Below are positions 1-31,239 of a DNA stretch of 64,000 nucleotides, one piece after another. How positions within the stretch are numbered: position 1 is the first letter of the stretch; each line of letters opens with the position of its first letter. This DNA is from Halobacteriaceae archaeon (lineage in GTDB: Archaea > Halobacteriota > Halobacteria > Halobacteriales > Halobacteriaceae), in assembly GCA_042216675.1 (NCBI GenBank), contig JBDGTS010000007.1, forward strand, positions 32,001 through 96,000. The letters run 5' to 3'. Position numbers and translations under genes: made by a program. The notes below the pieces were generated by a model that had not been told where the DNA came from, ran no database searches, and worked only from the letters and a program-made list of their open reading frames with translations.

Positions 1-641
1 TTGCGGACCTCCGACTCGGCGGTGACCGTCGCCGTGTTCGCGTCGACGTCGATGTCGTCCGCGTACACGTAGACGCCCGTCGTCCCGAGCCACGAGTAGA
101 GGGGAAGCGTCTGGTAGAGTTTGTCGGTGAGGTGGAGTTTGACGTTCTTCGTCACGCCGCCGTAGTTGGCGTTGAAGTTGCGGTCGGCCCACCGGAACGT
201 CTCGCCAGTCGCCGCCTCCTCGTAGTCCCAGTCGTTGTCGACGCGCACTGCGAGGACGTTCTCGCCGTCGGGGTCGACCTGTGCGGTGAGGTCGAAGCCG
301 AAGGCCATCACGCCGTTCTCGTGGCGGCCGAGGAACTCGCCGTTCAGGTACACCTCCGCGGCCTGTCGGACGCCCTCGAACTCCACGAATGCCTTCTTCT
401 CCGCGGTGCCCTCGGGGAGCGTGAACGTCTTTCGGTACCACGCGACGCCCGTCGAGAGGCCGTAGATGTCCTCGCGGAACGCCTCGTCCTCGTTCCACGC
501 GTGCGGGACGCTCACCTGCTCCCAGCCGCCGTCGTCGAACGACGGGTCCGCCGCGCCGTCGGGGTCGCCGACGCGGACCCGCCAGTCGGGGTTCATGCTG
601 TACGTCTCACGGGACCAATCAGGATCGGATTCGGGCGTCAT
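1..641 (-). CDS. Glycoside hydrolase family 2 (beta-galactosidase-like), N-terminal part; runs off the window edge
   Basis: Manual translation from ATG 641: MTPESDPDWSRETYSMNPDWRV...VPHAWNEDEAF...AWYRKTF...FEGVRQAAEVYLNG...GRHENGVMAFGFDLT...NVLAVRVDN...NYGG. This is the GH2 N-terminal sugar-binding domain pattern. Not in the ORF track. Confidence 0.85.
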   Translation of the reverse strand, partial: MTPESDPDWSRETYSMNPDWRVRVGDPDGAADPSFDDGGWEQVSVPHAWNEDEAFREDIYGLSTGVAWYRKTFTLPEGTAEKKAFVEFEGVRQAAEVYLNGEFLGRHENGVMAFGFDLTAQVDPDGENVLAVRVDNDWDYEEAATGETFRWADRNFNANYGGVTKNVKLHLTDKLYQTLPLYSWLGTTGVYVYADDIDVDANTATVTAESEVR

Positions 642-782
642 GGGGAATCTCTCGAACTGGTGGGATGCCGACGAGTGGCCACTTATACGTACGGGTCGGC
701 GAAGGGCCGCGGCGACCCGGTAAACCCGACGCCTCTGCTCCAAGAGACACCTTTTTGGTGTGGTCCCGCATTCCACAGGCGT

Positions 783-2225
783 ATGCATCAACTGCAGACG
801 GAATCCGAGGCCGACGCGGCCGAGGTGTCCGACGTGAAAATCGGCTACGTCGGCGGCGGCAGTCAGGGCTGGGCGCACACACTCATCAACGACCTCGCGC
901 AGTGCGAGGACATCTCCGGCGAAGTCGCACTGTACGACGTGCACTACGAACCCGCCGAGAAGAACGCGCAACTCGGCAATCAGGTCATGGACCGGGACGA
1001 CGCGCCCGGCGACTGGGACTTCGCGGCCTACCGCGAGATGGACGACGCTCTCGCGGACGCCGACTTCGTCATCTGCTCGATTCAGGACCCGCCCGAGGAG
1101 ACGTTCAAACACGACCTCGACATCCCCAAGGAGTACGGCGTCTTCCAGACGGTCGGCGACACCGTCGGCCCGGGCGGGGCCGTCCGCTCCCTGCGCGCCA
1201 TCCCCCAGTACCGCGAAATCGCGGCCACCATCCGGGAGCAGTGTCCCGACGCGTGGGTCATCAACTACACGAACCCGATGACCGTCTGCACGCGGGCGCT
1301 GTACGAGGAGTACCCCGACATCAACGCCATCGGTCTCTGTCACGAGGTGTTCGGCGCCCAGCGCAAGTTCGCCGAACTCGCCGAGGAGTACGTCGACGAG
1401 GCCGAGGACGTCGACATCGACGAAATCGACGTGAACGTGAAGGGCGTCAACCACTTCACGTGGATCGACGAGGCGTACTGGAACGGCCACGACGTGTTCC
1501 AGTACCTCGACGACAAACTCGAGGAAATCGGCCCGCTCCCCCGCTTCGAACAGGGCGAGTTCGACGACGAGTCCTACTGGACGAACAAGGGCGACGTCTG
1601 CTACGACCTGTACGACCGGTTCGGGATGCTCGGCGCGGCGGGCGACCGGCACCTCGTGGAGTTCGTGCCGTGGTACCTCGACATCGACGAGGAGTCCGAA
1701 ATCCAGCGTTGGGGCACCCGCTGTACGCCCTCCAGCGCTCGCGTCGCCGGTGAGCAGGACGTCTCGGAGGCGTCCCGCACCGAGCAGTATCTCTCCGGCG
1801 AGGAGGAGTTCGAGTTCCGAGAGTCCGGCGAGGAAGCGGTGCCCATCATGCGCGCACTGCTGGGCCTCCAGCCGCTGAAGACGCACCTCAACCACCCCAA
1901 CGTGGGGCAGATTCCGGACCTGCCTGAGGGCGCCGTCGTGGAGACGAACGCGCTCATCACGGGCGACAGCGTTCGGCCCATCACCGCCGGCGAACTCACG
2001 CGCCCGATTCGGAACCTCGTCCTCACGGCCGTCCACAATCAGGAGACGCTCATCGAGGCCGGCTTCGAGGGCGACCTCGACCTCGCCTATCAGGCGTTCC
2101 TCAACGAACCGCTCGTCAACGTCCAACCCGACGAGGCCGAGCAGATGTTCCGCGACCTCGTCGAGGTCGAACGCGACTACCTGCAGGACTACAACCTCGA
2201 CACCGCCGACGTGATGCAGGACTAG
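783..2225 (+). CDS. GH4 NAD+/Mn2+-dependent glycosidase, probable alpha-galacturonidase (LplD-like)
   Basis: KIGYVGGGS Rossmann motif, DTVGPGG, INYTNP and GLCHEV. Start reassigned from 132 to ATG 783. Confidence 0.88.
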   Translation: MHQLQTESEADAAEVSDVKIGYVGGGSQGWAHTLINDLAQCEDISGEVALYDVHYEPAEKNAQLGNQVMDRDDAPGDWDFAAYREMDDALADADFVICSIQDPPEETFKHDLDIPKEYGVFQTVGDTVGPGGAVRSLRAIPQYREIAATIREQCPDAWVINYTNPMTVCTRALYEEYPDINAIGLCHEVFGAQRKFAELAEEYVDEAEDVDIDEIDVNVKGVNHFTWIDEAYWNGHDVFQYLDDKLEEIGPLPRFEQGEFDDESYWTNKGDVCYDLYDRFGMLGAAGDRHLVEFVPWYLDIDEESEIQRWGTRCTPSSARVAGEQDVSEASRTEQYLSGEEEFEFRESGEEAVPIMRALLGLQPLKTHLNHPNVGQIPDLPEGAVVETNALITGDSVRPITAGELTRPIRNLVLTAVHNQETLIEAGFEGDLDLAYQAFLNEPLVNVQPDEAEQMFRDLVEVERDYLQDYNLDTADVMQD

Positions 2226-5200
2226 TCGGTCCTGAGTTCGACTTCCTTCTCGACGCGCAGTTCGACCGGGCCGCGCAGGCCCGACGCGGTCTGCCCCTCG
2301 TACACGTAGCGGGTCGGTGTCTCCGTCGCGAAGTGGTTGGCGACGGTGTTCGCGACGCGCACGGTCACCTCGTTCTCGCCGGGGTCGACGGCGTCAGTCA
2401 CGTCGACTTCGAACGGCCGCGAGAACACGGTGTCCACCGTCTCGCCGTCGACGGCGACTTCGGCGGTCACCGCCACGTCGCCGAGGTCCAGAACCACCCT
2501 GTCGCCGTCGTCGGTGTCGGGCACCTCGACCGTCCGGCGGTACTCCGCGATGCCCGAGAAGGAGTCGAGGCCGAGTTCCCGCCAGTCGCCCGCGTCGACG
2601 CGGCCCTCCTCGACGGTCAGCGGAACGGGCGTCTCCCACGCCGCCCCGCGGTTGTAGCCGTCGAGCAGTTCCGTACGGACGACGACTGTCGTGGCCGTCG
2701 TCGCGGGCGCGTCGAGTTCGACGCGGCCCGAGGGCGTCGCGTGTTCCACGCCGTCGACCCACGCCCTCGTCGGCCCTCGGGTGGGCAGGAGGAACGACGT
2801 CGTGCCCGGCGGGAGCGCGAACGCGAACCACGCCACGTCGTCGCGCCACGGGCGCGGTTCGAACCGGAGCGCCCCCGTCTCGAAGAACCACCGGACGCGG
2901 GGGACGTGGTCCATGTTCATCACGTGCGCCGTCGGCGGCGCGGGTTCGAGGGCGACGTGTGTCTCGGTGTCCGGTTCGACGACGATGTGTATCGGGACGG
3001 TGCCCTCGGGAACGTCCAGTTCGACCGACCCCGCCTCGTCGGGGACGGCGACGGGTTCGCCATCGACGCGCAAACTTTGGATGCCGGCGCCGTGGTGACA
3101 GGTCACTGTCTGGGCGTCCTCGCTCACCGCCGCCGACCAGAAGTGCGTGACACCATCGCCGGCGGGCGAAACGAGGAAGTCGTCGGAGACGACGCCGTTG
3201 TGGCCGTGGTCGTCGGGGTGGGTCCCCGGCTTGCCCACGTCGAGGGAGAACTCGTAGAGTGCCCATCCTTCGTCGTCCTCGTCCGGCGTCCGCACGTCGG
3301 CGTCCGCGGGCACGTCCGCCCGGCGCCAGAAGTGCGCGCCGTAGTCCACGAGCGCGTTGTCCCACCCCTCGATGGGGCCGGTGTACCACTCCTCTTCGAC
3401 GCCGTCCTCATCGGAGTCCTCCAGTCGATAGGCGAAGGCCCGCACCTCCGGACCGATCTGTGGTTCGGTGTCCGGATACCGGAAGTCCGCGTACGTGTTG
3501 TCCAGGGTCGGCTCCAGCGAGAACGCCCAGTCCTCGCTCACGTCCACGGGGTCCGGTACGTCGACGCTCGCCGTGGCCGTGACCTCGGTGCCGTCCGCGA
3601 CGGCCGTCGCCTCGTACTCGCCGGACTCGGCGGCGAGGCCGCGAACGGTCGTGCCCTGCTCGTCCGTCTCCACGGCCGTCACGCCGCCGAGGTCCGTGTC
3701 GGTGACGCCGACTCCCGGATCCGCGTGGCCGTCGAAGACGACCACTGCGAACTCGTGGGGCGCGAAGTCGAAGGTCAGGTCGGTGTGTGTGCCCTCGGCG
3801 TCGAACTCGTGAATCGGTTCGGCGGTGCCCGATTCGAGGTCCCAGCGCTCCGGGCGGCCGTCCGCGCGGAACGACGCCTCGACGGTGCGGGCCTCGTCGC
3901 GCGTGTTTAGGACGAGGTACACGTCCTGCCGACCGACGCGGCGGTGCGCGTGGAACACGTCGTCGGGCGCTTTCACGTCGCGGTTCACGAAGTCGTCGAG
4001 AACCTCGTCGAGGTCCGCCACGTCGTCCGCGACGACGCCGGCACCGCCGCTCTCGTGGTCGACGACGGGGTCGCCGTCGGCGGGCGGGCGCGCGTCGCCG
4101 AAGATGGCGTCCAGCGAGTTTTCGAGCGCCGGGTCGCCGGCGCCGCCCTCGACAGTCTCGTCTGGCAAGCGGCCCACCGAGACGACGACGCCGCCCTCGG
4201 CGACGAGTTCCGCGGCCGCCTCGACGACCTCGCGTCGGATCGTCGTCGCCGGGCCGAGGACGAACACGGGCGTCTCGCCGCCGCCGACGGCGAGGTCACC
4301 GTCCACGACCCCGCCGTCCACGATGGTCTCGTGGTCCACGAGGAGGAGGTCGCTCACCGACTCGTAGAACGCCTCGGCCACCTCGCGGGTGCGGGCGTCG
4401 ATGGCTTCGCCCTCGTCGGACATCTCGACGGGGTAGCGCGCGCCCGGCCCCTCTTTCTTCTCGTGGGCCGCGGCGCGGCGCTCCGCCTGCATCGTCGTGA
4501 TGGGGTAGTGCATCGCCGCGTCGACGACCCGGTCGCCCTGACTGAACAGGTACATCAGGCGCGTGACGGCGTCGTTGAACGCGTCGGCGTGTTCCCAGTA
4601 GGGCTGACGGAAGTGCGTGTCCGGCGGCGCGTGCTCGTACCAGCCACCGAGGGTCGTGTAGTAGAGGCCGTGCTTGTTGAAGCGATTGAGGCCGTAGCAG
4701 ACGTTCTCGGCGATGCCGGCGTACTGCAGGCGCGGCGGGAAGCCCCACCCGGTCGTGTGGAACAGTTCGCCCCACACCCGGTCGCGGCCGTAGTTCTCGG
4801 CGATGGAGGACGCCACCTTCGCGTCGAAGAACGTCCGGGTGCCGATGCCCTCGAAGCGCCCGCCGTCGTCGTAGCCGGGCTCCTGAAACCACCGCATCGT
4901 CCGCATGTAGTCGCCGTACTCGGAGTGGTGTTCGGTGAGGTCCTCGCGACCCCAGTTGTCGTGTGCGAACTTCAGGCCGCGGCGTTCGTGCCACTCGTAG
5001 AGCGGTTCGAACCAGTTCTCCTCCAGCATCGTCGTCACGACGTCGTGGTAGCGGCTCCGGATGGCCCCGGTGTCGGCGCCACAATCCTCGAAGAGTGCGA
5101 CGAGGTCCTCCGTCGGGTCCTCGCCCCAGTCGGCCTCGTAGCGCGCGAGGAGTCTGTCGTCGCAGGGAATCGTCCCCTGTAGCATGAACAGTTCGTCCTG

Positions 5201-5998
5201 GAACGTGCCGACGATGCTCTCGCCGAGATACTCGCCCAGTCGCTCGACGTAGGCCTCGTAGTGGTGTTCGATGACGCGGTCCACGGCGTCCCGCGTCGTC
5301 CGGCAGAGGCCCTCTGGCCGGTAACCGATACTCGCCACGTGCCAGTTGCCCTCGGGTGCGGTCCACTCGACGGCGCCGCCCTCGTGGTCGAGTTCGATGG
5401 CGCCCTCGGTGTCGAGGGTGCCGTCGTCGGCGCGGGGGTAGGCCGCCACAGAGAGCGGCGTGAAGTCCTCTCGGGGGTCGAGTTCGGCCGTCTCGCCGCC
5501 GGATACGTCGACGGCTTCCCGGTCGAGGACGTGGCCCTGCAGTTCCGGTCGCTCGTCGATTTCCTCCTCGACGGTGTCCTGCCAGTAGCGCTTCCACGAC
5601 GGCGGACTGTGGTGGTACGTCTCGTCGTGAATCCACAGGTCCATCTCGAGGCGGTCACACTCCGACGCCGCGTGGTCCATCATCTCCCACCACTCCTCGG
5701 AGAAGTAGGACTGGCGGGGTCCCTCCGGCGGCCCTTCGGGGTACTTCATCTCGAAGCAGACGGCCTCGACGCCCTGCTCCGAGAGGGTTTCGAGTTGGTC
5801 GGTGATACGCCCCCTCTCGAGGTCGTCGCCGTCCCACCACCAGAACGGGACGTTACCGAAGTCGGCGTGGGAGGGGTCGCTGAACCCCTCGATTAGCGCC
5901 TCGCGCTCGGTGCCCGCGCCCTCACGGTGGTCCGGTGCGGGCCTGTGGCTGATGGTGTCCTTCTGAATGTCGGGGTCCATCGGGTCCGGTCGTGGCAT
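2222..5998 (-). CDS. Large GH106-like glycoside hydrolase (putative alpha-L-rhamnosidase) with C-terminal beta-sandwich domains
   Basis: PFWWWDG, YFSEEWW, LWIHDE, FQDE, KVASSIA..YG, ELFHTTGWG; C-terminal FSGIAEYRR..LDLGDV..N.V.V.VANT..N. Confidence 0.7.
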   Translation of the reverse strand: MPRPDPMDPDIQKDTISHRPAPDHREGAGTEREALIEGFSDPSHADFGNVPFWWWDGDDLERGRITDQLETLSEQGVEAVCFEMKYPEGPPEGPRQSYFSEEWWEMMDHAASECDRLEMDLWIHDETYHHSPPSWKRYWQDTVEEEIDERPELQGHVLDREAVDVSGGETAELDPREDFTPLSVAAYPRADDGTLDTEGAIELDHEGGAVEWTAPEGNWHVASIGYRPEGLCRTTRDAVDRVIEHHYEAYVERLGEYLGESIVGTFQDELFMLQGTIPCDDRLLARYEADWGEDPTEDLVALFEDCGADTGAIRSRYHDVVTTMLEENWFEPLYEWHERRGLKFAHDNWGREDLTEHHSEYGDYMRTMRWFQEPGYDDGGRFEGIGTRTFFDAKVASSIAENYGRDRVWGELFHTTGWGFPPRLQYAGIAENVCYGLNRFNKHGLYYTTLGGWYEHAPPDTHFRQPYWEHADAFNDAVTRLMYLFSQGDRVVDAAMHYPITTMQAERRAAAHEKKEGPGARYPVEMSDEGEAIDARTREVAEAFYESVSDLLLVDHETIVDGGVVDGDLAVGGGETPVFVLGPATTIRREVVEAAAELVAEGGVVVSVGRLPDETVEGGAGDPALENSLDAIFGDARPPADGDPVVDHESGGAGVVADDVADLDEVLDDFVNRDVKAPDDVFHAHRRVGRQDVYLVLNTRDEARTVEASFRADGRPERWDLESGTAEPIHEFDAEGTHTDLTFDFAPHEFAVVVFDGHADPGVGVTDTDLGGVTAVETDEQGTTVRGLAAESGEYEATAVADGTEVTATASVDVPDPVDVSEDWAFSLEPTLDNTYADFRYPDTEPQIGPEVRAFAYRLEDSDEDGVEEEWYTGPIEGWDNALVDYGAHFWRRADVPADADVRTPDEDDEGWALYEFSLDVGKPGTHPDDHGHNGVVSDDFLVSPAGDGVTHFWSAAVSEDAQTVTCHHGAGIQSLRVDGEPVAVPDEAGSVELDVPEGTVPIHIVVEPDTETHVALEPAPPTAHVMNMDHVPRVRWFFETGALRFEPRPWRDDVAWFAFALPPGTTSFLLPTRGPTRAWVDGVEHATPSGRVELDAPATTATTVVVRTELLDGYNRGAAWETPVPLTVEEGRVDAGDWRELGLDSFSGIAEYRRTVEVPDTDDGDRVVLDLGDVAVTAEVAVDGETVDTVFSRPFEVDVTDAVDPGENEVTVRVANTVANHFATETPTRYVYEGQTASGLRGPVELRVEKEVELRTD

Positions 5999-8496: not shown

Positions 8497-8638
8497 CGTC
8501 CCCACTCTGGACCCCCCTGATTTAAGTCTCCTGCCCGTCGTCGAAAATATCGAGCGGTGTGTGTTCCGATATTCGACACATAGGAAACGCGGATGATGGA
8601 AAATTATATATGTGGCTGTGTCAATTGTCGTCACACAC
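8497..8638. promoter_or_regulatory. Divergent promoter region between PL22 copy 2 and the solute-binding protein
   Basis: AT-rich. TATA-like tttaag at 8521 (for the minus gene) and aaattatata at 8601-8610 (for the plus gene). Imperfect inverted repeat gtcgaaaatatcg/cgatattcgac at 8540-8577. Confidence 0.6.
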
Positions 8639-10798
8639 ATGGCGAATGATGGCAGCAGTGATCAAGACACGTTAGAGATCGACCTGAGCGTGCCCTCCGA
8701 TCGGCGGAAGTTCCTCAGTGCGATGGGAGTCGCCGGGGCAGCAGGCCTCGCCGGCTGTAGTGGTGGCGGCGGCGGCGGCGACGGTGACGGCACCGCTACC
8801 GAGACGCCGACGCCGACCAGCGGCCAAGACACCACCAGCGGCGACGGCACCACCGGCGGCGACCAGACGACAACCCAGCAGGGCGCCCCGATGACGGAGC
8901 GCACGCTCTCGACGTTCGTCGGCTCCACCACCGCGGACAGCCCCGAACCGAAGGCACTGACCGAGTGGGGCTGGGCGCCGTCGAACTACCGGTCCCAGTT
9001 CCCGCGGATGATGTACCCCTTCCTGTTCGGTCGGAAGGTGTCGTCCATCGAGGCGACTGGCGAGCGCATCCCGATGCTCATCCAGGAGTGGGAGGGCAAC
9101 GCCAACGAGATTCACTACAAGATCCACGAGGACGCCAAGTGGTCCGACGGCTCGGACATCACCGCGGAGGACATGCTCGGCACCGGCATGGTCGGGCACA
9201 AGATCGGCTACGACAAGCCGGCCTCGGAACGTGACGAGTACAACACGCTCGGGCAGGCCATCACCGGCTTCCGCGCCGAGGGCAAGGACTACTACATCGA
9301 GAGCGAAGTCGGTGCCTTCGACAACTTCTGGCTGGACTTCAACGTGTGGGACATCATCGCCCACGCCGGCTCTGCCGAGTTCACCACGCAGGGCGAATTC
9401 GGCCAGTGGCTCGCCGACCAAGTCAAGGACAAGTACGACGACCTGTGGGGCAACAAGAAAGCGGGCAGCTACATGTCCAAGCTCGCGAACCAGCCGATCT
9501 CGAAGAACGAATACTGGCCCGATGACCCGACGAAACTGCCGTACTCGGGCGCCTTCAAGCTCGACCAGGTCCTCGAGGCCAAGGCCATTCTCACGAAGAA
9601 CGAGAACTGGCTGCACTCCGACTCCATCAACTGGCCCGACGTGAAGCTCATCGTCCAGAACAACACGCAGGCGCAGAACGCCCTGCTGCAGAACAACGAA
9701 GTCGAGATGGTCCCGATGCACGGTGCGTCGGAGTCCATCATCGACTCGTTCCCGGACAACATGCAGCAATTCCCCTACGCTGCGGGTGACTCCACGAACA
9801 TCCTGGCGCAGGGCCAGCACCCCCACTTCGGGAAGCCGCCGGTGCGGAAGGCGCTCCTGCAGGCGGTCGACACGCAGCAGCTCCTGAACATCGCGAACTC
9901 CTACACGACGGCGAAGATCTCCGAGCCGCCGGGACTTCACGCCCAGCAGGAGGAGCGCTTCGTCAGCCAGGAGTTCCAGGACCAGTTCACGGAGTACCCC
10001 TACGACCCCAAGGCCGCCGCAGAGTGGATGCGCAGTGCGGGCTACACGAAGGACGGCACCAACTGGATGACGCCGGAGGGCGAACGGCTCACGGCGGAGC
10101 TCATCACTGCCGACGACAACATCCAGCTCGAGGCCACCCTCGTGTCCCAGCTGAACTCCTTCGGCATCGACACGAGCCTCACCAAGGTCACCAGCACGCA
10201 GTTCGGCAGCCGTCTCGACAACGGCAACTTCGAACTCGCCATCGAGAACTGGTTCACGGGGTACCCCGTCTGGAGTGCCGCGATTCTGGGTATCTTCTAC
10301 CGTGCGTTCCAGCAGTCGGTGCGCCGGAAGAAGTGGGGCATGTTCCCCGAGGACAAGACGATGGCCTTCGTGGACCGCCACGACGAGGTCGTCAACAAGG
10401 AGTACTCGTGGACGAACAACGTCGAGGGCATCTGGCCGAACCCGTCCCTCGTCAACCCCGAGAAGCAGGACAAGTGGGTTCCCCACATCAAGGCGCCGCC
10501 GGTCGGAAAGCCGAACTCCGACAAGGAGGTCGTCTACCCCGTCGTCTACTGGGGCATCCTCTGGCAGCAGAACATCAGCCGGGAGAAGCGCAAGGAGATC
10601 ATCAAGGGCGTGACGTGGGTGTACAACCAGACGCTGATGCCGTACATCCCGATCCTGGAGTCGAACCAGCTCGCGTTCCAGGACGTCGAGGACTGGAACG
10701 TCCCCAAGAAGGGCAACAAGTACTGGGACCAGTGGAACCCCCAGCACAAGCTCATCGAGCAGCCGCAGAACACCTACCAGGCTGTCCCCAAGAAGTAA
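8639..10798 (+). CDS. ABC transporter solute-binding protein (family 5-like), Tat lipoprotein
   Basis: DRRKFL twin-arginine motif, LAGC lipobox, Gly/Thr linker, KWSDG..ITAED, HPHFGKPPVRKAL, YPYDPKAA. Confidence 0.85.
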   Translation: MANDGSSDQDTLEIDLSVPSDRRKFLSAMGVAGAAGLAGCSGGGGGGDGDGTATETPTPTSGQDTTSGDGTTGGDQTTTQQGAPMTERTLSTFVGSTTADSPEPKALTEWGWAPSNYRSQFPRMMYPFLFGRKVSSIEATGERIPMLIQEWEGNANEIHYKIHEDAKWSDGSDITAEDMLGTGMVGHKIGYDKPASERDEYNTLGQAITGFRAEGKDYYIESEVGAFDNFWLDFNVWDIIAHAGSAEFTTQGEFGQWLADQVKDKYDDLWGNKKAGSYMSKLANQPISKNEYWPDDPTKLPYSGAFKLDQVLEAKAILTKNENWLHSDSINWPDVKLIVQNNTQAQNALLQNNEVEMVPMHGASESIIDSFPDNMQQFPYAAGDSTNILAQGQHPHFGKPPVRKALLQAVDTQQLLNIANSYTTAKISEPPGLHAQQEERFVSQEFQDQFTEYPYDPKAAAEWMRSAGYTKDGTNWMTPEGERLTAELITADDNIQLEATLVSQLNSFGIDTSLTKVTSTQFGSRLDNGNFELAIENWFTGYPVWSAAILGIFYRAFQQSVRRKKWGMFPEDKTMAFVDRHDEVVNKEYSWTNNVEGIWPNPSLVNPEKQDKWVPHIKAPPVGKPNSDKEVVYPVVYWGILWQQNISREKRKEIIKGVTWVYNQTLMPYIPILESNQLAFQDVEDWNVPKKGNKYWDQWNPQHKLIEQPQNTYQAVPKK

Positions 10799-12116: not shown

Positions 12117-14105
12117 GTGACGATTGGCACCTGCTACTTCCCCGAGCACTGGCCCCGCGAGCGCTGGGAAACCGACGTGAAGGAGATGGCCGACGCGGGC
12201 ATCGAGTACGTCCGCATGGCCGAGTTCTCGTGGGCGGAGATCGAACCGTCCCGCGGCGAGTTCGACTTCGAGTGGCTAGAGGACGCCGTCGAACTCATCG
12301 GCGACCACGGCATGCAGGCCGTCCTCTGCACGCCGACGGCGACGCCGCCGAAGTGGCTCGTCGACGAACACCCGGACATCAGGCAGGAGGACCCCGACGG
12401 CACCGTGATGGACTGGGGAAGCCGACGCCACTACTGCTTCAACTCGCCGACGTTCCGCGCGGAGACCGAACGCATCGTAACCGTCATGGCCGAGCGCTTC
12501 ACCGACAATCCCCACGTCGCCGGCTGGCAGACGGACAACGAGTACGGCTGTCACGGCACGGCTCACTGCTACTGCGACGACTGCGCGGCCGCCTTCAGGG
12601 AGTGGCTTCGGGAGCGCTACGGCGACGCCGAGACGCTGAACGAGCGCTGGGGAACCAGCTTCTGGTCCCAGCGCTACGACAGCATCGACCAACTCGACGT
12701 GCCGCGCCCGACGCCGTACAACCACCATCCCTCGCATCTGCTCGACTACAACCGCTTCAGCAGCGACAGCGTCGTCGACTACAACCGCCTGCAGGCGGAC
12801 CTGCTCCGCGACGTGAACGACGACTGGTTCGTCACGCACAACTTCATGTCGGAGTTCGGCGGCGTCGACGTGAACGAGATGCGGGACGACCTCGACTTCT
12901 CGGCGTGGGACTCGTACCCCACCGGCCACGTGCAGGAGGCCGACCGCGACCTGCGCGACGCGGAGTTCCGCGTCGGCAACCCCGACCAACTCGGCCTGAA
13001 CCACGACCTGTACCGCGCGCCGGACGCCCCCCACTGGATCATGGAGCAACAGCCCGGCGACGTGAACTGGCCGCCCCACAGCCCCCAACCCGGCGAGGGC
13101 GCGATGCGCCTCTGGGCGCACTGGGCCGTCGCGCACGGCGCCGACGAGGTCCTCTACTTCCGCTGGCGGCGCTGCCGCGAGGGGCAAGAGCAGTACCACG
13201 CCGGCCTCCGGAAGCAGGACGGCACTCCGGACCGGGGCTACCACGACGCCGCGGAGACGAGCGCCGACCTCGATGCCCTCGCCCTCGACCCCGTGGAGGC
13301 CGACGTGGCAATCCTCCACGACTTCGAGAACATGTGGGCGCTCGGCCCGGACCGTCACTCCCCCGATTTCTCCTACTGGGCGCACCTCAAGGCGTACTAC
13401 CGCGCGCTCCGCGCCCGGGGCGCGACGGTGACCATCACCCACCCCTCGGCGGACTTGGACCGGTACGACGCCGTCGTCGGCAACAATCTCTATCTCGCCG
13501 ACGACGAACTCGCGGCCCACCTCGACGACTACGTGTCGGGTGGCGGCGACCTGCTGTTGACGATGCGCGCCGGCGTGAAGGACCGCGCGAACAAGCTCCA
13601 CGAGGACCTGACGCCCGGCCCCCTCGCGAATCTCGTCGGCGCGCGCGTGGACCAACACGAGAGCGTCCCCGCGCAGATGGAGACCCGCGCCACCTACGAC
13701 GGTGAGACGCACGCCTACCGGACGTGGGCGGAGTGGCTCGACCCCGACGCCGCGGCTGTCGTCGGCCGCCACGAGACGGGCGTCGCCGCGGGCGAACCAG
13801 CAATCACCCGCAACGAGGTGGACGACGGTTCAGTCACGTACGTCGGCCTGTGGCCCGAGGCGGACCTCGCGGACCGCCTCGTCACGGACCTCCTGCACCG
13901 CGCGGACGTGCCGACGACGGACCGACTGCCCGAGGGCGTCCGCTTCGCGGAACGCGACGGTCTGACGTGGGTCGGCAACTTCACCGAGGGCGCGGTCAGC
14001 GTGGACGCGCCCGCCGACGCCGAGTACGTCGTCGGCGACGAGACGGTGCCCTCCTTCGACGTCAGCGTGGTCAGGGCCGCCCCCCACGAACTGTCCGTCG
14101 ACTGA
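12117..14105 (+). CDS. bgaH: GH42 beta-galactosidase
   Basis: [52 protein letters not shown]; GTG start at 12117. Confidence 0.92.
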
Positions 14106-18230: not shown

Positions 18231-18313
18231 ACCCGCCCCTGTGCGAGCGGCGACTTGTGTGTTGTGCCCGCGGACCACAACATATAACTCCGCAACCTCG
18301 GTCGCGGTAGACG

Positions 18314-19318
18314 ATGACAGACGACCTCCGCTTCGGCGTCGTCGGCGTCGCCGGCATGGGCGGCACGCACGCCGACGCCCTCGAACAGACGGACGGCGCG
18401 TCGCTCGTGGCCGGGGCCGACCTGGACGAGGCGGCCGCCGACGAGTTCGCCGACGAGTACGGCGTCGCCGCGTACACCGACACCGTCGAGATGGTCCGGG
18501 ACGCGGACCTCGACGCCGCGTGCATCTGCACGCCCAACGGCACCCACGCCGACGTCGTGGAGGACGTGGCCGCCGAGGGCGTCGATATTCTCTGCGAGAA
18601 ACCCCTCGACGTGACGCCCGAACGGGTCGCTCGGGTCATCGAGGCCTGCGAGGACGCCGGAGTGACCCTCGGCGTCTGCCTCCAGCGACGCACGCTCGGC
18701 GGTCCGCGCCTCGCCCGCGACGCCGTGGCGGACGGCACTCTCGGGGACCTCACGCTCGCGGACGTGCAGGTGAAGTGGCACCGCACGAGCGACTACTACG
18801 ACGTGGGCTGGCGGGGGACCGCAGACCTCGACGGCGGCGTCCTCCTGACGCAGGCGCTCCACGGCATCGACTTGCTCCAGTGGGCCGCGGGCGGCGTCGA
18901 ACGGGTGACGGCCACCGTCGAGACGATGCACCACGAGGGAATCGAAGTCCCCGACACCGCGGCGGCGACGCTGGAGTTCGAGAACGGCGCCTACGGCCAG
19001 ATTTCGGCTTCGACGGCCGTCTACCCCCAGTACCCCATCACCCTGCAGGTCCACGGCACCGAGGGGTCGGTCCGGTGGCACGAGGACGAACTGGACGAGT
19101 TCACCGTCGAGGGCCGCGACGACGCGGCCCTGCCGGATCCCGAACCGTTCGAGTTGGGGCGGGGCCACCTCGGCATCGTGCGGGACTTCGTGGAAGCGCT
19201 TCAGGAGGGCCGCGAACCGATGGTCTCGGGCGCCGACGCACGCGACGTCCACGACCTCGTGTTCGCCATCGCGCAGGCCGCCGAGACGGACGAGTGGGTC
19301 GCACTCCCCGACCGGTAG
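18314..19318 (+). CDS. Gfo/Idh/MocA family NAD(P)-dependent oxidoreductase
   Basis: GVVGVAGMG, ICTPNGTH, LCEKPL, GGVLLTQALHGIDL. Confidence 0.9.
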   Translation: MTDDLRFGVVGVAGMGGTHADALEQTDGASLVAGADLDEAAADEFADEYGVAAYTDTVEMVRDADLDAACICTPNGTHADVVEDVAAEGVDILCEKPLDVTPERVARVIEACEDAGVTLGVCLQRRTLGGPRLARDAVADGTLGDLTLADVQVKWHRTSDYYDVGWRGTADLDGGVLLTQALHGIDLLQWAAGGVERVTATVETMHHEGIEVPDTAAATLEFENGAYGQISASTAVYPQYPITLQVHGTEGSVRWHEDELDEFTVEGRDDAALPDPEPFELGRGHLGIVRDFVEALQEGREPMVSGADARDVHDLVFAIAQAAETDEWVALPDR

Positions 19319-19349: not shown

Positions 19350-20069
19350 ATGTCGCTGACGGTCACCGTCTGGAACGAGAACGTCCACGAACAGGAGGAC
19401 CCCGAGGTGGCGGAGCGCTACCCCGACGGCATCCACGGGGCCATCGCCGACTTCCTCGACGACGCGGGCCACGACGCGCGCACCGCGACGCTACAGGAAC
19501 CGGAGCACGGTCTCGACGAGGGGACCATCGCGGAGACGGACGTGCTGGTCTGGTGGTCCCACGCCGCCAACGACGAGGTGACAGACGAGGTGGCCGACCG
19601 TGTCGTGGACGCCGTCCTCGACGGGATGGGCTTCATCCCCCTTCACTCCGGGAAGAACTCGAAGCCGTTCAAGCGCCTGATGGGGACCTCCTGTGCCATC
19701 AAGTACCGCCACGGCGGCGAGACGGAGCGAATCTGGGTCGTGGACCCCAGTCATCCCATCGCCGACGGCCTCGACGACCACTTCGAGATTCCCGAGACGG
19801 AGATGTACGGGGAGCCGTACATGGTGCCCGAACCGGACCGCCTCGTCTTCACCTCGTGGTTCGAGGGCGGCGAGGTGTTCCGCTCCGGCTGTTGCTACCA
19901 CCGCGGTCGCGGGAACATCTTCGCGTTCCGGCCCGGACACGAGGAGTACCCAATCTTCTATCAGGACGAGGTCCAGACGGTCGTCGAGAACGCCGTGGAG
20001 TGGGCCGCGCCGAACGAGGGCGCGAGCGCCACCCACGGCCACAGCGAACCGCTGGAGGACTTCGAGTAA
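19350..20069 (+). CDS. ThuA-like domain protein
   Basis: VTVWNENVHE, YPDGIHG, ATLQEPEHGL, LHSG, EMYGE, SWFEGGEVFRSGC, FRPGHEEYP. Confidence 0.88.
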   Translation: MSLTVTVWNENVHEQEDPEVAERYPDGIHGAIADFLDDAGHDARTATLQEPEHGLDEGTIAETDVLVWWSHAANDEVTDEVADRVVDAVLDGMGFIPLHSGKNSKPFKRLMGTSCAIKYRHGGETERIWVVDPSHPIADGLDDHFEIPETEMYGEPYMVPEPDRLVFTSWFEGGEVFRSGCCYHRGRGNIFAFRPGHEEYPIFYQDEVQTVVENAVEWAAPNEGASATHGHSEPLEDFE

Positions 20070-21533: not shown

Positions 21534-22778
21534 CTACTCGTAGTGGAACTCCGTCCACGGCCCCTCCTCGAAGGGGTACTCCGCCACGACGTCGAGGTTC
21601 ACCTCGAAGCCCAGTCCCGGGTCGTCGGGCACGGCGAGGCGCCCGTTCTCGACGGCCGGTTCATCCTCGATGAGGTCGAACGCCGCGTCGAAGGGGTACA
21701 TCCCGGGGTCGCCGTCGGCGGCGATGAGCGGGTCGTTCTCGAAGACGGGGTACTCCACGAGGTCGACGTCCGGCGCGGCGGCGACGAGGTGCGCGTTCGC
21801 CAGCAGACCGATCCACGTCCCGAAGTTGTGCGGCACGAACTCCACGTCCCGGCCGCGGCAGAACTCGACGGCCGGCACGCATCCGGTGAAGCCCCGGTGG
21901 TGGCGCACGTCGCCCTGCAGGAAGTCCACGGCGCCCGTGCGCCCGAGTTCGAGGAGGCCCTCGGGCGTCTCCTCGCTCTCGCCGCCGGCGAGGGGGGCGT
22001 CAGTCGTCTCCGCCAGCCACTCGTAGCCCTCGTAGTCGTCTGGCGCGACTGGCTCCTCGACCCAGTAGGCGCCCTGTTCGGCGGCGTACTGGACGATGGA
22101 CTGAATCTCCGCGTCGTCGTAGGCGTCCTCCAGTTTCCACCACGTGTGCGCGTCGAGCATCATCGCCGTCTCGTCGAGGGCCTCGGCCACGAGGTCGATG
22201 GTCCGCTTGTCGGCGTCGGGGCCGATGCCGGGCCGGTACTTGTAGCCGAAGAAGCCCTCTTCCTCGACGATGGCCGCTTGCTCGGCGAAGCCCTCGGGGT
22301 CCATGTACATCCCAGCGCTGGCGTAGAGGGGGAGGTCCGTCGTGGCCTCGGGCGCGTCGTCGAACTCCTCGCGGAGCAGTTCGTAGACCGGCACCCCCTC
22401 CTCCTTCCCGCGGATGTCGTAGAGGGCCACGTCCACGGCCGAGATCGCCTTCGTGGTCAGGTCGGCGGGGAGCGACGACGCCTCCAGCAGGTCGTGGGCG
22501 TCGGTGATGGCATCGATGTCCTCGCCTTCGAGGGCGTCGGCGACGGTGCTGTTCAGCACGTCCGCGAAAGTGCCCTGTGACTTGTCCTCGAAGAACTCCT
22601 TCATCGACGAACTCGACGCGCCGGCCGTCGCCGCGCCCCGGAGACCGGTGGCCGTCTCGACGACCACGAGGACCACGTCTCGCTTCAGCAGGCGACGGTA
22701 CCCCCCGTGGAACTCCCGTTTCTGCGTCGGGTCGATGGGCGACGACAGCGCGTACCCGGTGACGTCTGTGACGTGCAT
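21534..22778 (-). CDS. Mandelate racemase/enolase superfamily enzyme (acid-sugar dehydratase candidate)
   Basis: DVALYDIRGK, LYASAG, KYR, LDAH, WVEEP, GGES, PHNF. Confidence 0.85.
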   Translation of the reverse strand: MHVTDVTGYALSSPIDPTQKREFHGGYRRLLKRDVVLVVVETATGLRGAATAGASSSSMKEFFEDKSQGTFADVLNSTVADALEGEDIDAITDAHDLLEASSLPADLTTKAISAVDVALYDIRGKEEGVPVYELLREEFDDAPEATTDLPLYASAGMYMDPEGFAEQAAIVEEEGFFGYKYRPGIGPDADKRTIDLVAEALDETAMMLDAHTWWKLEDAYDDAEIQSIVQYAAEQGAYWVEEPVAPDDYEGYEWLAETTDAPLAGGESEETPEGLLELGRTGAVDFLQGDVRHHRGFTGCVPAVEFCRGRDVEFVPHNFGTWIGLLANAHLVAAAPDVDLVEYPVFENDPLIAADGDPGMYPFDAAFDLIEDEPAVENGRLAVPDDPGLGFEVNLDVVAEYPFEEGPWTEFHYE

Positions 22779-26023: not shown

Positions 26024-26047
26024 GCCCTGCGAGCCGACGGCTGGGGC

Positions 26048-26359
26048 ATGCCCGATGACCACCCGCTCACCGCCGTCTCGCGCGCCGTGGCCGTCCTCGG
26101 CGCGACGTATCTCACCGTCGGGTCGTTGTCGCTCGCGCGGGACCCCGGCGCGACGACGGCGCGCTACGCCCTCCTCTTGCTCATCGTCGCCCTCGCGTGG
26201 GGCGGCGTCGCGGGCGTCGTCCGCGAGGAGCGGCCGCTCTGGGCCACGTCGCTCGTCGGCTTGACGGTGCTGGCGCTGTTCAACGACATTCTCACGCAGT
26301 TCCTGTTCCCCGCGCTCGGAGCGCTGGCGCTCGGGGTGGCGCTCACCGAGGCGCGCTGA
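26048..26359 (+). CDS. Small membrane protein (3-4 TM segments)
   Basis: Hydrophobic 103-aa ORF filling the gap between GH78 and GH2. Confidence 0.6.
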   Translation: MPDDHPLTAVSRAVAVLGATYLTVGSLSLARDPGATTARYALLLLIVALAWGGVAGVVREERPLWATSLVGLTVLALFNDILTQFLFPALGALALGVALTEAR

Positions 26360-29072: not shown

Positions 29073-30221
29073 TCAGTCCACGACGACGTGGCGCGTCCGG
29101 TTCGCTTCCACGAAGTCCCAGTCGATGTCGACGCCGAGGCCCGGTCCCTCGGGGACGGCGACGTGGCCGTCGTCGTCCACGACTTCGATTGGGGTCTCGT
29201 AGCCGACGTTGTTCGTCCACTCGAAGCCGAGTTCCGGGTGGACGAGGCCGTGTTCGAAGTAGCCGGCGTTGGGCACCGCCGAGAGCAAGTGGAGGTGTGC
29301 CGCGCCGCCGAGATGGGGTTCGAGGTCCATCCCCGCGGACTGGACGGCGTGGACCGTCTTCATCGCGCCCGTCAGGCCGCCGCCGAGGTGGGCGTCGACG
29401 CGCACCAAGTCGAGGGCGTCCTCGAACAGGTGGTCGATGGCGCCGAACGGTTCGGTGCGGGAGTGTTCGAGGCCGAGAATCGGCGTGTCCAGTTCCTCGG
29501 TGAGGCGGCGCATCGCGTAGGCGCTGTCGCCGGTGTCGCGCAGCGGGTCCTCGTACCACGCGAAGTCGAGTTCGTCCAGCACCCGGCCCACCTTCAGCGC
29601 GTCCGAGTAGCGCCGGTAGCAACTGGACGGGTCGATCATCAGCTCCATCTCGTCGCCGACGGCGTCGTCGACGGCGCGACAGATTTCGACGTCCCGGTCG
29701 GCGTCCCCCAGCGGGTGAATCTTGAACGCCGGATACCCCCGGTCGCGGCACTCGCGGGCGAAGTCGGCGTACGTCGAGGGCGTGTCGTACTCCGGGTTGC
29801 CCGACGTGGTGGAGGCGTAGGCGGGCACGCGCTCCCGCATCCGACCGCCCAGCAGTGTGGCGACGGACTCGCCGTACTTCTTGCCGGCGAGGTCCCAGAG
29901 GGCGATGTCGATGGGGCCGATGCCGAGGTGCCCCGTGTGTCTGAGCGCCCGCCGCAGGTCGAACCAGATGGCCTCACGGTTGAGGGGGTTCCGCCCCAGC
30001 AGGAAGTCCTCGGCGACGTGTTCGACCTGTGGAACGGTGAGGGCGCCGAAAATCTGGCCTCGGTACTGGCCGGTCACCCCCTCGTCGGTGTGAATCGAGA
30101 GGACGAAGGAGGTCCCTTCGGCCGTCTCGCCCGGTTCGTACACGGACTCGCCGTCCGGGCGGGTGCCGACATCTGCCTGTTCGAACGCGAACTCGTCGAT
30201 TTCGACTGCGGTGATTTCCAT
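29073..30221 (-). CDS. Mandelate racemase/enolase superfamily enzyme
   Basis: IDIALWDLAGK, VPAYAST, FKIH, MIDP, WYEDP, GPGLG. Confidence 0.88.
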   Translation of the reverse strand: MEITAVEIDEFAFEQADVGTRPDGESVYEPGETAEGTSFVLSIHTDEGVTGQYRGQIFGALTVPQVEHVAEDFLLGRNPLNREAIWFDLRRALRHTGHLGIGPIDIALWDLAGKKYGESVATLLGGRMRERVPAYASTTSGNPEYDTPSTYADFARECRDRGYPAFKIHPLGDADRDVEICRAVDDAVGDEMELMIDPSSCYRRYSDALKVGRVLDELDFAWYEDPLRDTGDSAYAMRRLTEELDTPILGLEHSRTEPFGAIDHLFEDALDLVRVDAHLGGGLTGAMKTVHAVQSAGMDLEPHLGGAAHLHLLSAVPNAGYFEHGLVHPELGFEWTNNVGYETPIEVVDDDGHVAVPEGPGLGVDIDWDFVEANRTRHVVVD

Positions 30222-30321
30222 TCGGAGTGGCTCCGACGCTGGTACGTCGAAAAGCGAGTCGGTGCCACCCGGAATAAGGGTTTCCCAAAGGCTCATTTGC
30301 GCGGGCCGCGCCTCGGTTCAC

Positions 30322-31239
30322 ATGGCTGCATTCGAGGGCGTCTGCCCCATCGTCTCCACGCCGTTCGACGAGGACGGGAGCGTCGACTACGACAGTCTGG
30401 AAACGCAAATCACCGCGCTCGCGGACGGTGGCTGTCACGGCGCCATCCTCTTTGGCTTCGCCGGCGAGTTCTACAAACTCACCGAGGAGGAACAGGGCCG
30501 CATCGTGGCGCGGTCCGTCGCGGCCGCCGACGAGGCCGAGATTCCGCTCTACGTCTCCATCACGGCCCACGCGACGAGCGTCGCCGTGGACCGGGCGCGC
30601 GCCGCCGAAACTACGGGCGCCGACGGCCTGATGCTCCTCCCGCCGTTCGTCATGGGGCCGAGCGCCGACGACATCCGCGACCACATCGAGGCCGTCGGGG
30701 AGGCCGTCGACCTGCCGGTGATGGTGCAGTACGCGCCCGACAACACCGGCGTCTCCATCTCGCCGGAGACGTTCGTCGAGGTGAGCGAGTCACTGCCGAA
30801 CGTGAACCGCTACAAGGTCGAGTGTAGTCCCCCCGGCGGCTACACGACGGCGCTCCTCGACGCCGCGCCCGACGACGTGGAGGTGCTGGTGGGAAGCGGC
30901 GGCCGCGCCTTCATCGAGATGCTGGACCGCGGCGGCGTCGGCGTCGTCCCCGGCGGCGCCCTCCACGAGATTTACGTCGAAATCTACGAGCGATACGAGG
31001 CCGGCGACAGGGCCGGAGCCCTCGAACTCCACCGGGAACTGCTCCCATACCTCCAGCACATCGGCCAGACCGGCGAGATGTTCATCCACTACGAGAAGCG
31101 CCTCATCGCCGACAGGGGCTTCATCGACGACCCCACCTGCCGGGACCCCGCCTTCGACCCGGACGACTACCTCGACGACCTGTTCGCTGACCTCGCAGAC
31201 CCCCTCGTGGAGCGGGCAGAAGACCTGCGCCCGGCCTGA
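30322..31239 (+). CDS. DapA/NAL-family enzyme (2-keto-3-deoxy sugar-acid aldolase or dehydratase)
   Basis: TPFDEDGSVD, GFAGEF, GADGLMLLPPF, Schiff-base Lys in YKVE. Confidence 0.85.
   Translation: MAAFEGVCPIVSTPFDEDGSVDYDSLETQITALADGGCHGAILFGFAGEFYKLTEEEQGRIVARSVAAADEAEIPLYVSITAHATSVAVDRARAAETTGADGLMLLPPFVMGPSADDIRDHIEAVGEAVDLPVMVQYAPDNTGVSISPETFVEVSESLPNVNRYKVECSPPGGYTTALLDAAPDDVEVLVGSGGRAFIEMLDRGGVGVVPGGALHEIYVEIYERYEAGDRAGALELHRELLPYLQHIGQTGEMFIHYEKRLIADRGFIDDPTCRDPAFDPDDYLDDLFADLADPLVERAEDLRPA

Follow-up and report, generated by a model that had tools for sequence, protein, structure and literature searches.

A chromosomal cluster of pectin- and rhamnogalacturonan-related enzyme genes in a Halobacteriaceae archaeon

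The stretch of DNA analysed here, hereafter the window, comprises 64,000 nucleotides (positions 32001-96000) of contig JBDGTS010000007.1 in assembly GCA_042216675.1, a metagenome-assembled genome of an uncultured Halobacteriaceae archaeon. We call this contig C4 and the other contigs of the assembly C1, C2, C3 and so on; gene coordinates without a contig name are window positions. The left part of the window belongs to a cluster of about 40.6 kb and 24 genes (C4 22643-63239, the right end being window position 31239) of glycoside hydrolases (GH), polysaccharide lyases (PL), a solute-binding protein (SBP) and putative sugar-acid enzymes. We interpret it as a chromosomal cluster for taking up pectic oligosaccharides and dismantling them in the cytoplasm, an explanation to which we give a probability of roughly 0.6. 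That the locus processes pectic oligosaccharides is likely, judging from the protein families present. The new aspect is that its sugar-acid genes suggest a galacturonate pathway of which no description was found in Archaea. All protein functions named below are predictions.

Enzyme families and genomic setting

A Pfam scan with curated cut-offs was run on all long open reading frames (ORFs). The first 31239 positions of the window hold 19 genes, of which 11 are listed as carbohydrate-active enzyme (CAZyme) genes, and no GH or PL family was matched among the 22 ORFs scanned between 31.3 and 64 kb; the clustering of CAZyme genes is not due to chance. Over the whole cluster, 11 CAZymes are supported by Pfam and two further proteins are CAZyme-like by their fold. 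An earlier reading made from the letters alone (the sequence-only reading) had proposed at least 11 CAZyme genes in one block. Each of the 11 that it listed was recovered at its place, ten of them above the Pfam cut-offs, and the profiles support the pectin- and rhamnogalacturonan-related families that it had named. The SBP and the five catabolic candidates that it had counted are also present, the latter being a GFO/IDH/MocA oxidoreductase, a ThuA-like protein, two enolase-superfamily proteins and a DHDPS-family protein. Its statement that the locus runs past the left edge proved right by 9.4 kb: C4 22643-32000 carries a GFO oxidoreductase, a secreted beta-helix protein, a DHDPS-family gene, a GH51 gene, a luciferase-like oxidoreductase and the remainder of a GH2 gene.

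To our knowledge, PL2, PL22, LplD-type GH4 and GH28 are known solely from galacturonide metabolism. The PL2 protein matches its Pfam family over nearly the full profile, and its relatives are 55-66% identical in haloarchaea and 44-50% in Bacteria. PL22b matches the solved oligogalacturonate lyases of Yersinia and Vibrio (3PE7, E 7e-27; 3C5M, E 1e-25). Aligned with 3PE7, it conserves the equivalents of R217, H242, H287, H353 and H355 and has Asp instead of Q350 (five of six positions kept); we take these six to be the YeOGL residues for catalysis (His and Arg) and for metal binding (four ligands, Gln350 among them). The HPH metal motif is present in PL22a. At the Gln-ligand position the haloarchaeal proteins vary, with Asp in PL22a, PL22b and one paralogue and Gly in another (copies on C24 and C6). 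The GH4 protein has both GH4 domains and, as the sequence-only reading had stated, a CHEV motif (residue 191), which is presumably tied to the type of GH4 substrate. Among solved structures the LplD alpha-galacturonidase 3FEF is by far its closest match (E 9e-108, other GH4 structures reaching 4e-28 or weaker). The GH28 translation contains NTDGINPDS, GDDCITIKS, GHGGVTIGSE and RGLRIKT, and so all of NTD, DD, GHG and RIK, which we take as the motif list of this family.

Two proteins are candidate rhamnosidases. The GH78 protein has the complete set of five Rha78 domains. In the other, the best stretch matching the GH106 profile PF17132 (cut-off 29) covers only positions 589-739 of 743; structure matches are 5MQM/5MWK (E 9e-22, in three stretches) and 6Q2F (E 9e-20), and by these sequence comparisons the protein is a divergent GH106 member. 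The label "GH43-like", given earlier to the gene at 10921-11949, holds for the clan and not for the family. Its product is predicted to be a five-bladed propeller of the GH43 clan (structure model with a predicted local distance difference test score, pLDDT, of 89) and stays below the GH43 cut-off (PF04616, 16.3 bits versus 32.2, E 0.0067). Its family counts 1562 relatives; of the 31 that were aligned, 25 have a GH43 match with E<=0.01. The nearest Foldseek matches are GH117, GH130, GH62, GH159 and GH43; a sequence search of the PDB gave a single weak match (4U6D, E 0.002). The protein is filed at clan level only, without a family assignment.

GC content ranges from 64 to 73%, and coding frames are recognisable by a GC content at third codon positions (GC3) of 0.8-0.95 and by acidic products. 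Aspartate and glutamate together make up a fraction of 0.13-0.21 of the locus proteins, and the nearest relatives are haloarchaeal (PL2, beta-helix protein and the enolase-superfamily protein MR1), in line with the salt adaptation proposed earlier.

The distribution of these genes was surveyed in a sample of 400 other species of Halobacteria. Above the cut-offs, PL2 occurs in 7 genomes, PL22 in 16 and GH28 in 44; PL2 and PL22 occur together in a single genome, and neither was found in the 22 genomes of the host's own family. Neighbourhoods of PL2 with GH28, a GFO oxidoreductase, MR1 and GH4 were found in Haloterrigena, Haloarcula, Natrinema, Halogranum, Natrarchaeobius and Halosolutus. GH28 lies within 10 kb of PL2 in seven of eight haloarchaeal loci, the MR1 and GH4 proteins near PL2 in relatives are 66-76% and 64-68% identical to those described here, and on two annotated plasmids both GH4 and GH28 stand near PL2. 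In relatives the core adjoins a CE8 pectinesterase and PL1. A core of PL2, GH28, GH4, GFO oxidoreductase and MR1 is thus conserved in other haloarchaea, which is what the sequence-only reading had wished to see checked by synteny.

Table 1. Genes of the cluster within the window (aa, amino acids)
Gene product	Window positions	Strand	Evidence and remarks
GH2 glycosidase, first 213 codons	1..641	-	full gene 965 aa, reaching C4 29744; Pfam Glyco_hydro_2_N, Glyco_hydro_2, GH2_C5, DUF4982, F5/8 type C; start placed at ATG 641 by the rise in GC3
GH4, LplD-type alpha-galacturonidase candidate, 480 aa	783..2225	+	PF02056 179 bits, PF11975 152 bits
GH106-like alpha-L-rhamnosidase candidate, 1258 aa, C-terminal GH2-type sugar-binding domain	2222..5998	-	PF17132 82.6 bits
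PL22 oligogalacturonate lyase homologue a (PL22a), 401 aa	6001..7206	-	PF14583 73.7 bits, full length (cut-off 30)
PL22 oligogalacturonate lyase homologue b (PL22b), 408 aa	7270..8496	-	PF14583 98.9 bits (cut-off 30)
Family-5 solute-binding lipoprotein (SBP)	8639..10798	+	PF00496 SBP_bac_5 104 bits
Five-bladed beta-propeller, GH43/GH117/GH62 clan, 342 aa	10921..11949	-	frame reading and structure model
GH42 beta-galactosidase	12117..14105	+	PF02449 486 bits, PF08532 187 bits
Leucyl-tRNA synthetase (LeuRS), bacterial-type	14155..16743	+	PF13603, PF00133, PF08264
PL2 pectate lyase, 496 aa	16740..18230	-	PF06917 473.2 bits (cut-off 26.6), profile 1-485 of 491
GFO/IDH/MocA oxidoreductase (GFO2), paired with ThuA-like gene	18314..19318	+	three Pfam domains
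ThuA-like protein	19350..20069	+	PF06283 109 bits
GH28 polygalacturonase-family hydrolase, 475 aa	20070..21497	-	PF00295 167.6 bits
Enolase-superfamily protein MR1, upstream of GH28, same strand	21534..22778	-	PF13378, PF02746
GH78 alpha-L-rhamnosidase, 1078 aa	22787..26023	+	PF17389 325.7, PF08531 192.1, PF05592 108.4, PF25788 98.5, PF17390 50.3 bits
Small hydrophobic ORF, 103 aa, uncertain gene	26048..26359	+	GC3 0.95; no Pfam match
GH2 glycosidase, 899 aa	26360..29059	-	four GH2 Pfam domains; 8U01 E 1.9e-150
Enolase-superfamily protein MR2, upstream of GH2; acid-sugar dehydratase candidate	29073..30296	-	PF13378, PF02746
DHDPS-family lyase, divergent from MR2; 2-keto-3-deoxy acid aldolase/dehydratase candidate	30322..31239	+	PF00701 123 bits

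The assembly consists of 58 contigs and 2.15 Mb, with a completeness of 80.45% and a contamination of 1.05%; at this completeness, failing to find a gene cannot prove its absence. The cluster is chromosomal, with housekeeping genes on both flanks. The left flank has aromatic amino-acid genes (chorismate and EPSP synthases) besides those for DNA polymerase B, an ABC exporter and a histidine-kinase-like protein; rightwards from 31239 are genes for a HAD hydrolase, ThiI, haem synthesis, a copper ATPase, ribonucleotide reductase and gluconeogenesis. The genes form about 12 alternating units, with the head-to-tail sets PL22b-PL22a-GH106, MR1-GH28, MR2-GH2 and GFO2-ThuA. All ORFs of the locus are intact and closely packed, and convergent neighbours share 4 bases. 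A second sample of the same study yielded identical contigs that span the LeuRS-PL2, PL2-GFO2-ThuA and ThuA-GH28-MR1-GH78 joins. The metagenome contig L036 of a relative (85-92% protein identity) carries GH42-LeuRS-PL2, GFO2-ThuA and GH28 in conserved order; it has two additional stretches of 2.2 kb and 4.3 kb, in which a weak winged-helix match and no other Pfam family were found.

One member of the block, which the sequence-only reading had left unmentioned, is a gene for LeuRS between GH42 and PL2. This is a housekeeping gene outside the pathway. It has the bacterial-type editing domain PF13603, and the genome's remaining class-I synthetase-like matches share no more than 26-33% identity with it; two forms of LeuRS are known in the Halobacteriales. 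Its position is retained in L036, where the protein is 90% identical and the GH42-LeuRS-PL2 set 87-90%. Further right in the window (59219-63225), a MoxR AAA ATPase and two proteins with DUF4129 and DUF7269/DUF58, respectively, form a MoxR-type set unrelated to the cluster.

Cell location and uptake

Export was judged by direct reading of the N-termini. Only two proteins of the locus carry export signals. One is the SBP, in whose N-terminus (DRRKFL...LAGC) a twin-arginine (Tat) signal is followed by a lipobox; the other is the beta-helix protein, whose N-terminus TRRSALALMGAGG is a twin-arginine signal. No signal peptide was seen at the N-termini of GH4, GH106, both PL22, the propeller, GH42, PL2, GH28, GH78, both GH2 or GH51. 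From these termini, the GH and PL proteins of the window appear to be cytoplasmic.

The beta-helix protein (753 aa) is encoded at C4 23645-25906, to the left of the window. With paralogues on C1, C2, C3 and C29 (43-57% identical) it makes up a five-member family in this genome, and its full-length relatives are exclusively haloarchaeal. A sequence search of the PDB gave nothing at E<=0.01; the protein is placed by fold comparison alone. It has no assigned CAZy family. The folds nearest to its beta-helix domain are mannuronan epimerase modules of AlgE6 and AlgE4 (Z 38.6 and 38.0; root-mean-square deviation 2.1-2.5 over 334-340 residues), and the next group, about 5 Z units lower, comprises phage depolymerases and plant polygalacturonases. 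The C-terminal domain resembles CBM66/galectin folds, and relatives often carry ricin domains. A secreted enzyme acting on polyuronates is a reasonable guess from the modelled fold.

None of the 20 ABC permease matches (BPD_transp_1) in the genome lies on C4, the nearest candidates being on C12 and C3, and no DNA-binding or regulator family was found among the Pfam-scanned ORFs of the locus. With respect to the polysaccharide utilization loci (PULs) of the Bacteroidota type, Pfam detected neither a TonB-dependent receptor nor SusD among the 24 locus ORFs, and so no SusC/SusD pair. As for ABC-type PUL-like loci, in which a regulator and all parts of an ABC transporter accompany the CAZymes, the SBP alone is present. 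Nor were PL1 or CE8 found in the 80%-complete assembly. The sequence-only reading had taken the locus for a haloarchaeal counterpart of a bacterial pectin PUL. The families and the pectin/rhamnogalacturonan theme agree with this, and the notion of a complete PUL does not: with no export signals on GH and PL proteins, no ABC permease on C4, no regulator and no PL1 or CE8, the locus looks like an importer and processor of oligosaccharides rather than a full bacterial-type PUL. A second copy of the SBP (82% identity) lies at the extreme end of C8 (59443-61599), so that its neighbours, possibly the missing permeases, are unassembled.

Palindromes of the form TGTGK-N9-11-MCACA lie in divergent promoter regions at 759-777 (GH2/GH4) and at 8560-8580 and 8617-8637 (PL22b/SBP), and a related one at 18256-18279 (PL2/GFO2). 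The window holds five matches where 0.19 are expected, three of them in the GH2/GH4 and PL22b/SBP regions. These very sites had served to define the pattern, and the PL2 loci of other haloarchaea do not contain it; a shared operator was therefore not used as evidence.

Beyond the cluster, this small genome is unusually rich in glycan genes, and the cluster is one of several glycan loci. The assembly has five PL22, three GH28, four GH78, two GH42 and two propeller copies, three rhamnose-mutarotase matches and a weak GH88/GH105 match on C12. Three matches to the PL11 RGI_lyase family score 103-117 bits, the one on C25 having a Tat signal and a lipobox. A further CAZyme locus on C12 (1-48628) encodes a GH29 fucosidase, a GH127-like protein, a GDSL esterase, two SBPs, two GH78, GH42 and GH2, together with an Opp-type ABC system made of a fused ATPase and two permeases. 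A search with PF09284 (PL4) was uninformative, with zero matches in all control genomes. To the right of the window, C4 99224-109456 holds another glycan cluster with a GH2-like gene, an esterase-like ORF that begins with a GQSN motif and two large ORFs; a PL11 RGI_lyase match at 108125-108361 in this cluster runs towards the contig end.

From these elements the following scheme can be proposed. The polymer would be cut outside the cell by the Tat-secreted protein with beta-helix and lectin-like domains, by the Tat-lipoprotein PL11 or by other organisms. By way of the lipoprotein SBP, the oligomers would then reach an Opp/Dpp-type ABC importer whose genes lie on another contig. Inside the cytoplasm, oligogalacturonides may be shortened by PL2, GH28 and LplD-type GH4 and the dimers split by the two PL22. 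GH106 and GH78, with GH28, would peel rhamnogalacturonan oligomers, and GH42, the two GH2, GH51 and the propeller could strip galactose and arabinose side chains.

Sugar-acid genes and the fate of galacturonate

The structures nearest to MR1 are 5OLC, the Bordetella enolase-family protein 3OZM and 4GGB. Of these, 5OLC is DauB, and 4GGB, like 4HPN, is the galactarolactone cycloisomerase AtGCI, which has Asp194, Glu220 and Glu246 as metal ligands, Lys166 as base and His296 as acid (PMC5698469). MR1 keeps the equivalents of Asp194, Glu220, Glu246 and His296 (four of five) and has Arg for Lys166 (K-Y-R); K-x-R in place of K-x-K was also found in all four MR1 orthologues checked. MR1 may work like Gci. 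It is not filed as a galactarolactone cycloisomerase, and from its residues we consider it a candidate enzyme that may convert galactaro-lactone or galactarate.

Of the 400 sampled Halobacteria, 55 have an MR1 orthologue (55-75% identical), and public records, those of Haloferax included, label these proteins merely "mandelate racemase/muconate lactonizing enzyme family". MR1 is present in all seven genomes with PL2, in 12 of the 14 that match PL22 clearly, in 36 of 50 with any GH28 match and in 19 of the 350 others. It accompanies GH28 in 31 of the 31 genomes where the GH28 match reaches E<=1e-37, a class chosen post hoc, with the data already seen.

For 20 of these 55 genomes, hand-picked and thus non-random among those lacking PL2, the 20 kb surrounding MR1 were retrieved and genes within 10 kb counted. 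An aldehyde dehydrogenase, a second enolase-family gene and a universal stress protein each occur at 13 of the 20 loci. A ThuA-like gene (71-75% identical) follows at 12, an epimerase-family short-chain dehydrogenase/reductase (SDR) at 9, a GFO oxidoreductase (GFO1) at 7 and a luciferase-like (LLM) oxidoreductase at 6. An orthologue of the left-flank DHDPS gene, GH4 and PL1-ricin are found at 5 loci each, a lactonase at 4, GH28 at 3 and CE8 at 2. That MR1 in relatives has a sugar dehydrogenase, another enolase and an aldehyde dehydrogenase for neighbours suggests an oxidative galacturonate route. Comparable genes exist in the host: on C2 an epimerase-family SDR (67% identical to the SDR that neighbours MR1) stands beside a second enolase (63%), and the aldehyde dehydrogenase at C37 10280-11731 passes the 2,5-dioxovalerate dehydrogenase equivalog NF052305 (862.8 bits, cut-off 750). 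We found no description in the literature of an archaeal galacturonate or uronate dehydrogenase pathway.

Galacturonate would probably be oxidised and not isomerised, the SDR-type sugar dehydrogenase on C2 acting first. MR1 and the second enolase would turn the lactone or aldarate into 2-keto-3-deoxy-aldarate, from which a DHDPS-family dehydratase/decarboxylase and then the 2,5-dioxovalerate dehydrogenase on C37 would lead to 2-oxoglutarate. Against the KdgD model TIGR03249 (cut-off 374), the left-flank DHDPS gene scores 63 bits and the gene at 30322-31239 scores 83 bits, both far below. For the latter protein no specific nearest structure was found. MR2, whose nearest structures are 4MMW, 4HCD and 1RVK (E 1e-52), and the DHDPS-family protein encoded at 30322-31239 may act on another sugar acid, perhaps rhamnonate. 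A third enolase-superfamily gene outside the locus (42158-43507) is 40% identical to MR2 and has unrelated neighbours (permease, phytoene synthase).

Judged from these sequences, the oxidative route is tentative, its chances being put somewhat below even. An alternative, which we hold to be unlikely, is that the classical KduI/KduD and UxaC/UxaB/UxaA routes reside in the missing fifth of the genome and that the use of rhamnose, arabinose or galactose is what the enolase and DHDPS genes are for. The searches of the assembly showed neither KduI nor UxaC, its completeness leaving room for them. A mannonate dehydratase is annotated near the cluster of Halosolutus, MR2 paralogues on C3 and C2 adjoin rhamnose-mutarotase matches, and UxaC is present in three of five complete genomes with PL2. 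Moreover, in the parts of the report available, an isomerase and a reductase are proposed for haloarchaeal glycosaminoglycan (GAG) degraders (PMC13260240). On the other hand, KduI was found in none of the same five genomes, and MR1 keeps strict company with strong GH28 matches and has an SDR, another enolase and an aldehyde dehydrogenase as neighbours.

Weighing the explanations, known systems and meaning

Several points weigh against uptake and cytoplasmic dismantling of pectic oligosaccharides, or against the oxidative step within it. There is no permease, ATPase or regulator within the locus, so that both co-regulation and uptake stay putative, and the other contigs are tied to C4 by binning alone. 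GH78, GH106, GH2, GH42 and GH51 are not specific to pectin, and if PL1 and CE8 are lacking, methyl-esterified pectin would be inaccessible. None of the nine catabolic or unknown locus proteins reaches an NCBIfam equivalog. The SDR has as its best NCBIfam model the Azf glucose-6-phosphate dehydrogenase (193 bits versus 400), which leaves its substrate putative, and the Arg at the position of the general-base Lys means that MR1 is not a plain Gci. The UxaC genes of relatives show that an isomerase route exists in some of them. As to the MR1 counts, the GH28 class on which the strictest one rests was defined after the fact, and related genomes make all of them non-independent. Finally, in the parts available to us, Sorokin et al. 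2022 report that pectin, polygalacturonate and rhamnogalacturonan supported no growth of their isolates and that pectin enrichments failed, and a 2025 paper, in its available parts, sees no evidence that haloarchaea use such polymers, growth of strain A-rgal3 being marginal. As cultured haloarchaea that carry GH28, PL1, PL2 or PL22 genes thus grew marginally at best on pectic substrates, the pectin function of loci of this kind stays putative.

These isolates lead to a further explanation, namely that the target is another rhamnose- or uronate-rich glycan of brines (microbial or algal exopolysaccharides, cell-surface glycans) and that pectin-family enzymes act here on related alpha-linked uronides. 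This appears quite unlikely. The isolates carry GH28, PL1, PL22, PL11 and PL26 sets, for which their authors suggest an unknown activity, as far as the accessible text goes (Sorokin et al. 2022). The beta-helix protein is nearest to alginate epimerase/lyase modules and phage depolymerases, not to known pectate lyases, the C12 locus adds a fucosidase and a GH127-like protein, and GH78, GH106 and GH2 are broad families. What speaks for pectic substrates is the presence of the four galacturonide families, of PL11 rhamnogalacturonan I (RG-I) lyases in the genome, and of CE8 pectinesterase and PL1 next to the core in relatives. It is very unlikely that the region is only a CAZyme-rich neighbourhood whose genes are separately transcribed and regulated, some perhaps being relics of transfer: the roughly 12 alternating units, LeuRS in the middle, the want of a regulator or transporter core and the patchy occurrence of PL2 and PL22 would fit such a view, but the ORFs are intact and tightly packed with 4-base convergent overlaps, their order is retained in a relative at 85-92% protein identity, and the enzyme set is complementary, not redundant.

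The claim of the sequence-only reading that the system is undescribed did not hold. This kind of locus has been known since 2011, the present one differing in make-up and setting. In the parts of their article available, Anderson et al. 2011 (PMC3102087) report a PL2-GH4-GH28 cluster of Haloterrigena turkmenica, annotated as Htur_4783-4790 on plasmid pHTUR02, and gene sets of isolates followed in 2022. The pHTUR02 cluster and its twin in Halosolutus gelatinilyticus resemble the locus described here in grouping PL2 (61-63% identical), GH4 (66-68%) and GH28 (40%); the Halosolutus cluster also has a GFO oxidoreductase, MR1 (68%), a DHDPS-family gene, a second enolase, an SDR and an aldehyde dehydrogenase nearby. 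Both differ in lying on megaplasmids, with extra annotated pectate lyases besides PL2, an IclR regulator and PGF-CTERM surface proteins, all of which the present locus lacks. Conversely, tblastn found no relatives of PL22, GH106, GH78, GH42, GH2 or GH51 within the stretches of them examined. The present locus is set among housekeeping genes and is without PL1 and CE8.

Three bacterial systems invite comparison. Dickeya and Yersinia degrade oligogalacturonides in the cytoplasm with PelW (PL2), Ogl (PL22), uptake by TogMNAB and KduI/KduD. The likeness lies in signal-less PL2 and PL22 enzymes acting after uptake of oligomers by an ABC transporter with a binding protein; in the haloarchaeal locus the SBP has no adjoining permease genes, KduI was not found, the Gln metal ligand of Ogl is Asp, and GH4 and GH28 are added. 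The RG-I PUL of Bacteroides thetaiotaomicron and the RG-I/lplABCD genes of Bacillus subtilis are systems for rhamnogalacturonan fragments. They share with the present genome the combination of GH106, GH28, GH2, GH43-type, GH42-type, PL11 and LplD-type GH4 enzymes. Here, however, no SusC/SusD was found, the enzymes are predicted to be cytoplasmic rather than periplasmic or surface-bound, and GH88/GH105 is represented by the weak match on another contig. Agrobacterium tumefaciens has an oxidative galacturonate pathway (Udh, Gci, KdgD, KGSADH) that ends at 2-oxoglutarate. It has in common with the haloarchaeal genes an SDR dehydrogenase and enolase-family, DHDPS-family and aldehyde dehydrogenase proteins in shared neighbourhoods, and differs in the K-x-R of MR1, in the DHDPS proteins lying far under the KdgD cut-off, and in having no counterpart of the ThuA-like protein and the LLM oxidoreductase.

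Among Archaea, PUL-like GAG loci of haloarchaea with PL8, GH88 and GH154, up to 46 kb long, were described in 2026 (PMC13260240). According to the available parts of that report, they too are large clusters for a uronic-acid polymer, with a lyase, cytoplasmic glycosidases and ABC uptake, and differ in being plasmid-borne, in including the ABC transporter and in having growth experiments behind them; pectin, polygalacturonate and rhamnogalacturonan all gave negative results with their hosts.

Pectinase-like genes have been noted in haloarchaeal genomes since the comparative study of 2011, and up to 2026, as far as the available parts of these publications tell, good growth on pectin has been shown for no haloarchaeon, and enrichments fail. 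The nearly all-cytoplasmic machinery described here offers a testable explanation: oligogalacturonides or RG-I oligomers would have to be fed, or a primary degrader supplied in co-culture, instead of the polymer. The locus is also a source of salt-adapted candidate PL2, PL22, GH28, GH4, GH78 and GH106 enzymes.

Taken jointly, these elements would mean that about one in seven species of Halobacteria, Haloferax included, has an undescribed galacturonate pathway made of an Azf-like SDR, two enolase-superfamily enzymes (one with K-x-R), a DHDPS-family dehydratase and a 2,5-dioxovalerate dehydrogenase, with ThuA-like and luciferase-like partners. In the present host this pathway would be joined to cytoplasmic PL2, PL22, GH28, GH4, GH106 and GH78 and to five secreted AlgE-like beta-helix enzymes, which would make the organism a candidate pectin-utilising haloarchaeon that lives on oligomers and was missed by enrichments. 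That all these parts hold together is somewhat unlikely. Taken by itself, and going by sequence comparison, the conserved unnamed gene set may carry galacturonate to 2-oxoglutarate in Archaea. Haloferax is a genus with standard genetic tools and has MR1 orthologues, so the idea of a galacturonate pathway can be tested there. The main value of the cluster is therefore as a lead, both to an oligomer-feeding haloarchaeon that culturing may have missed and to a conserved, still unnamed pathway that may serve galacturonate.

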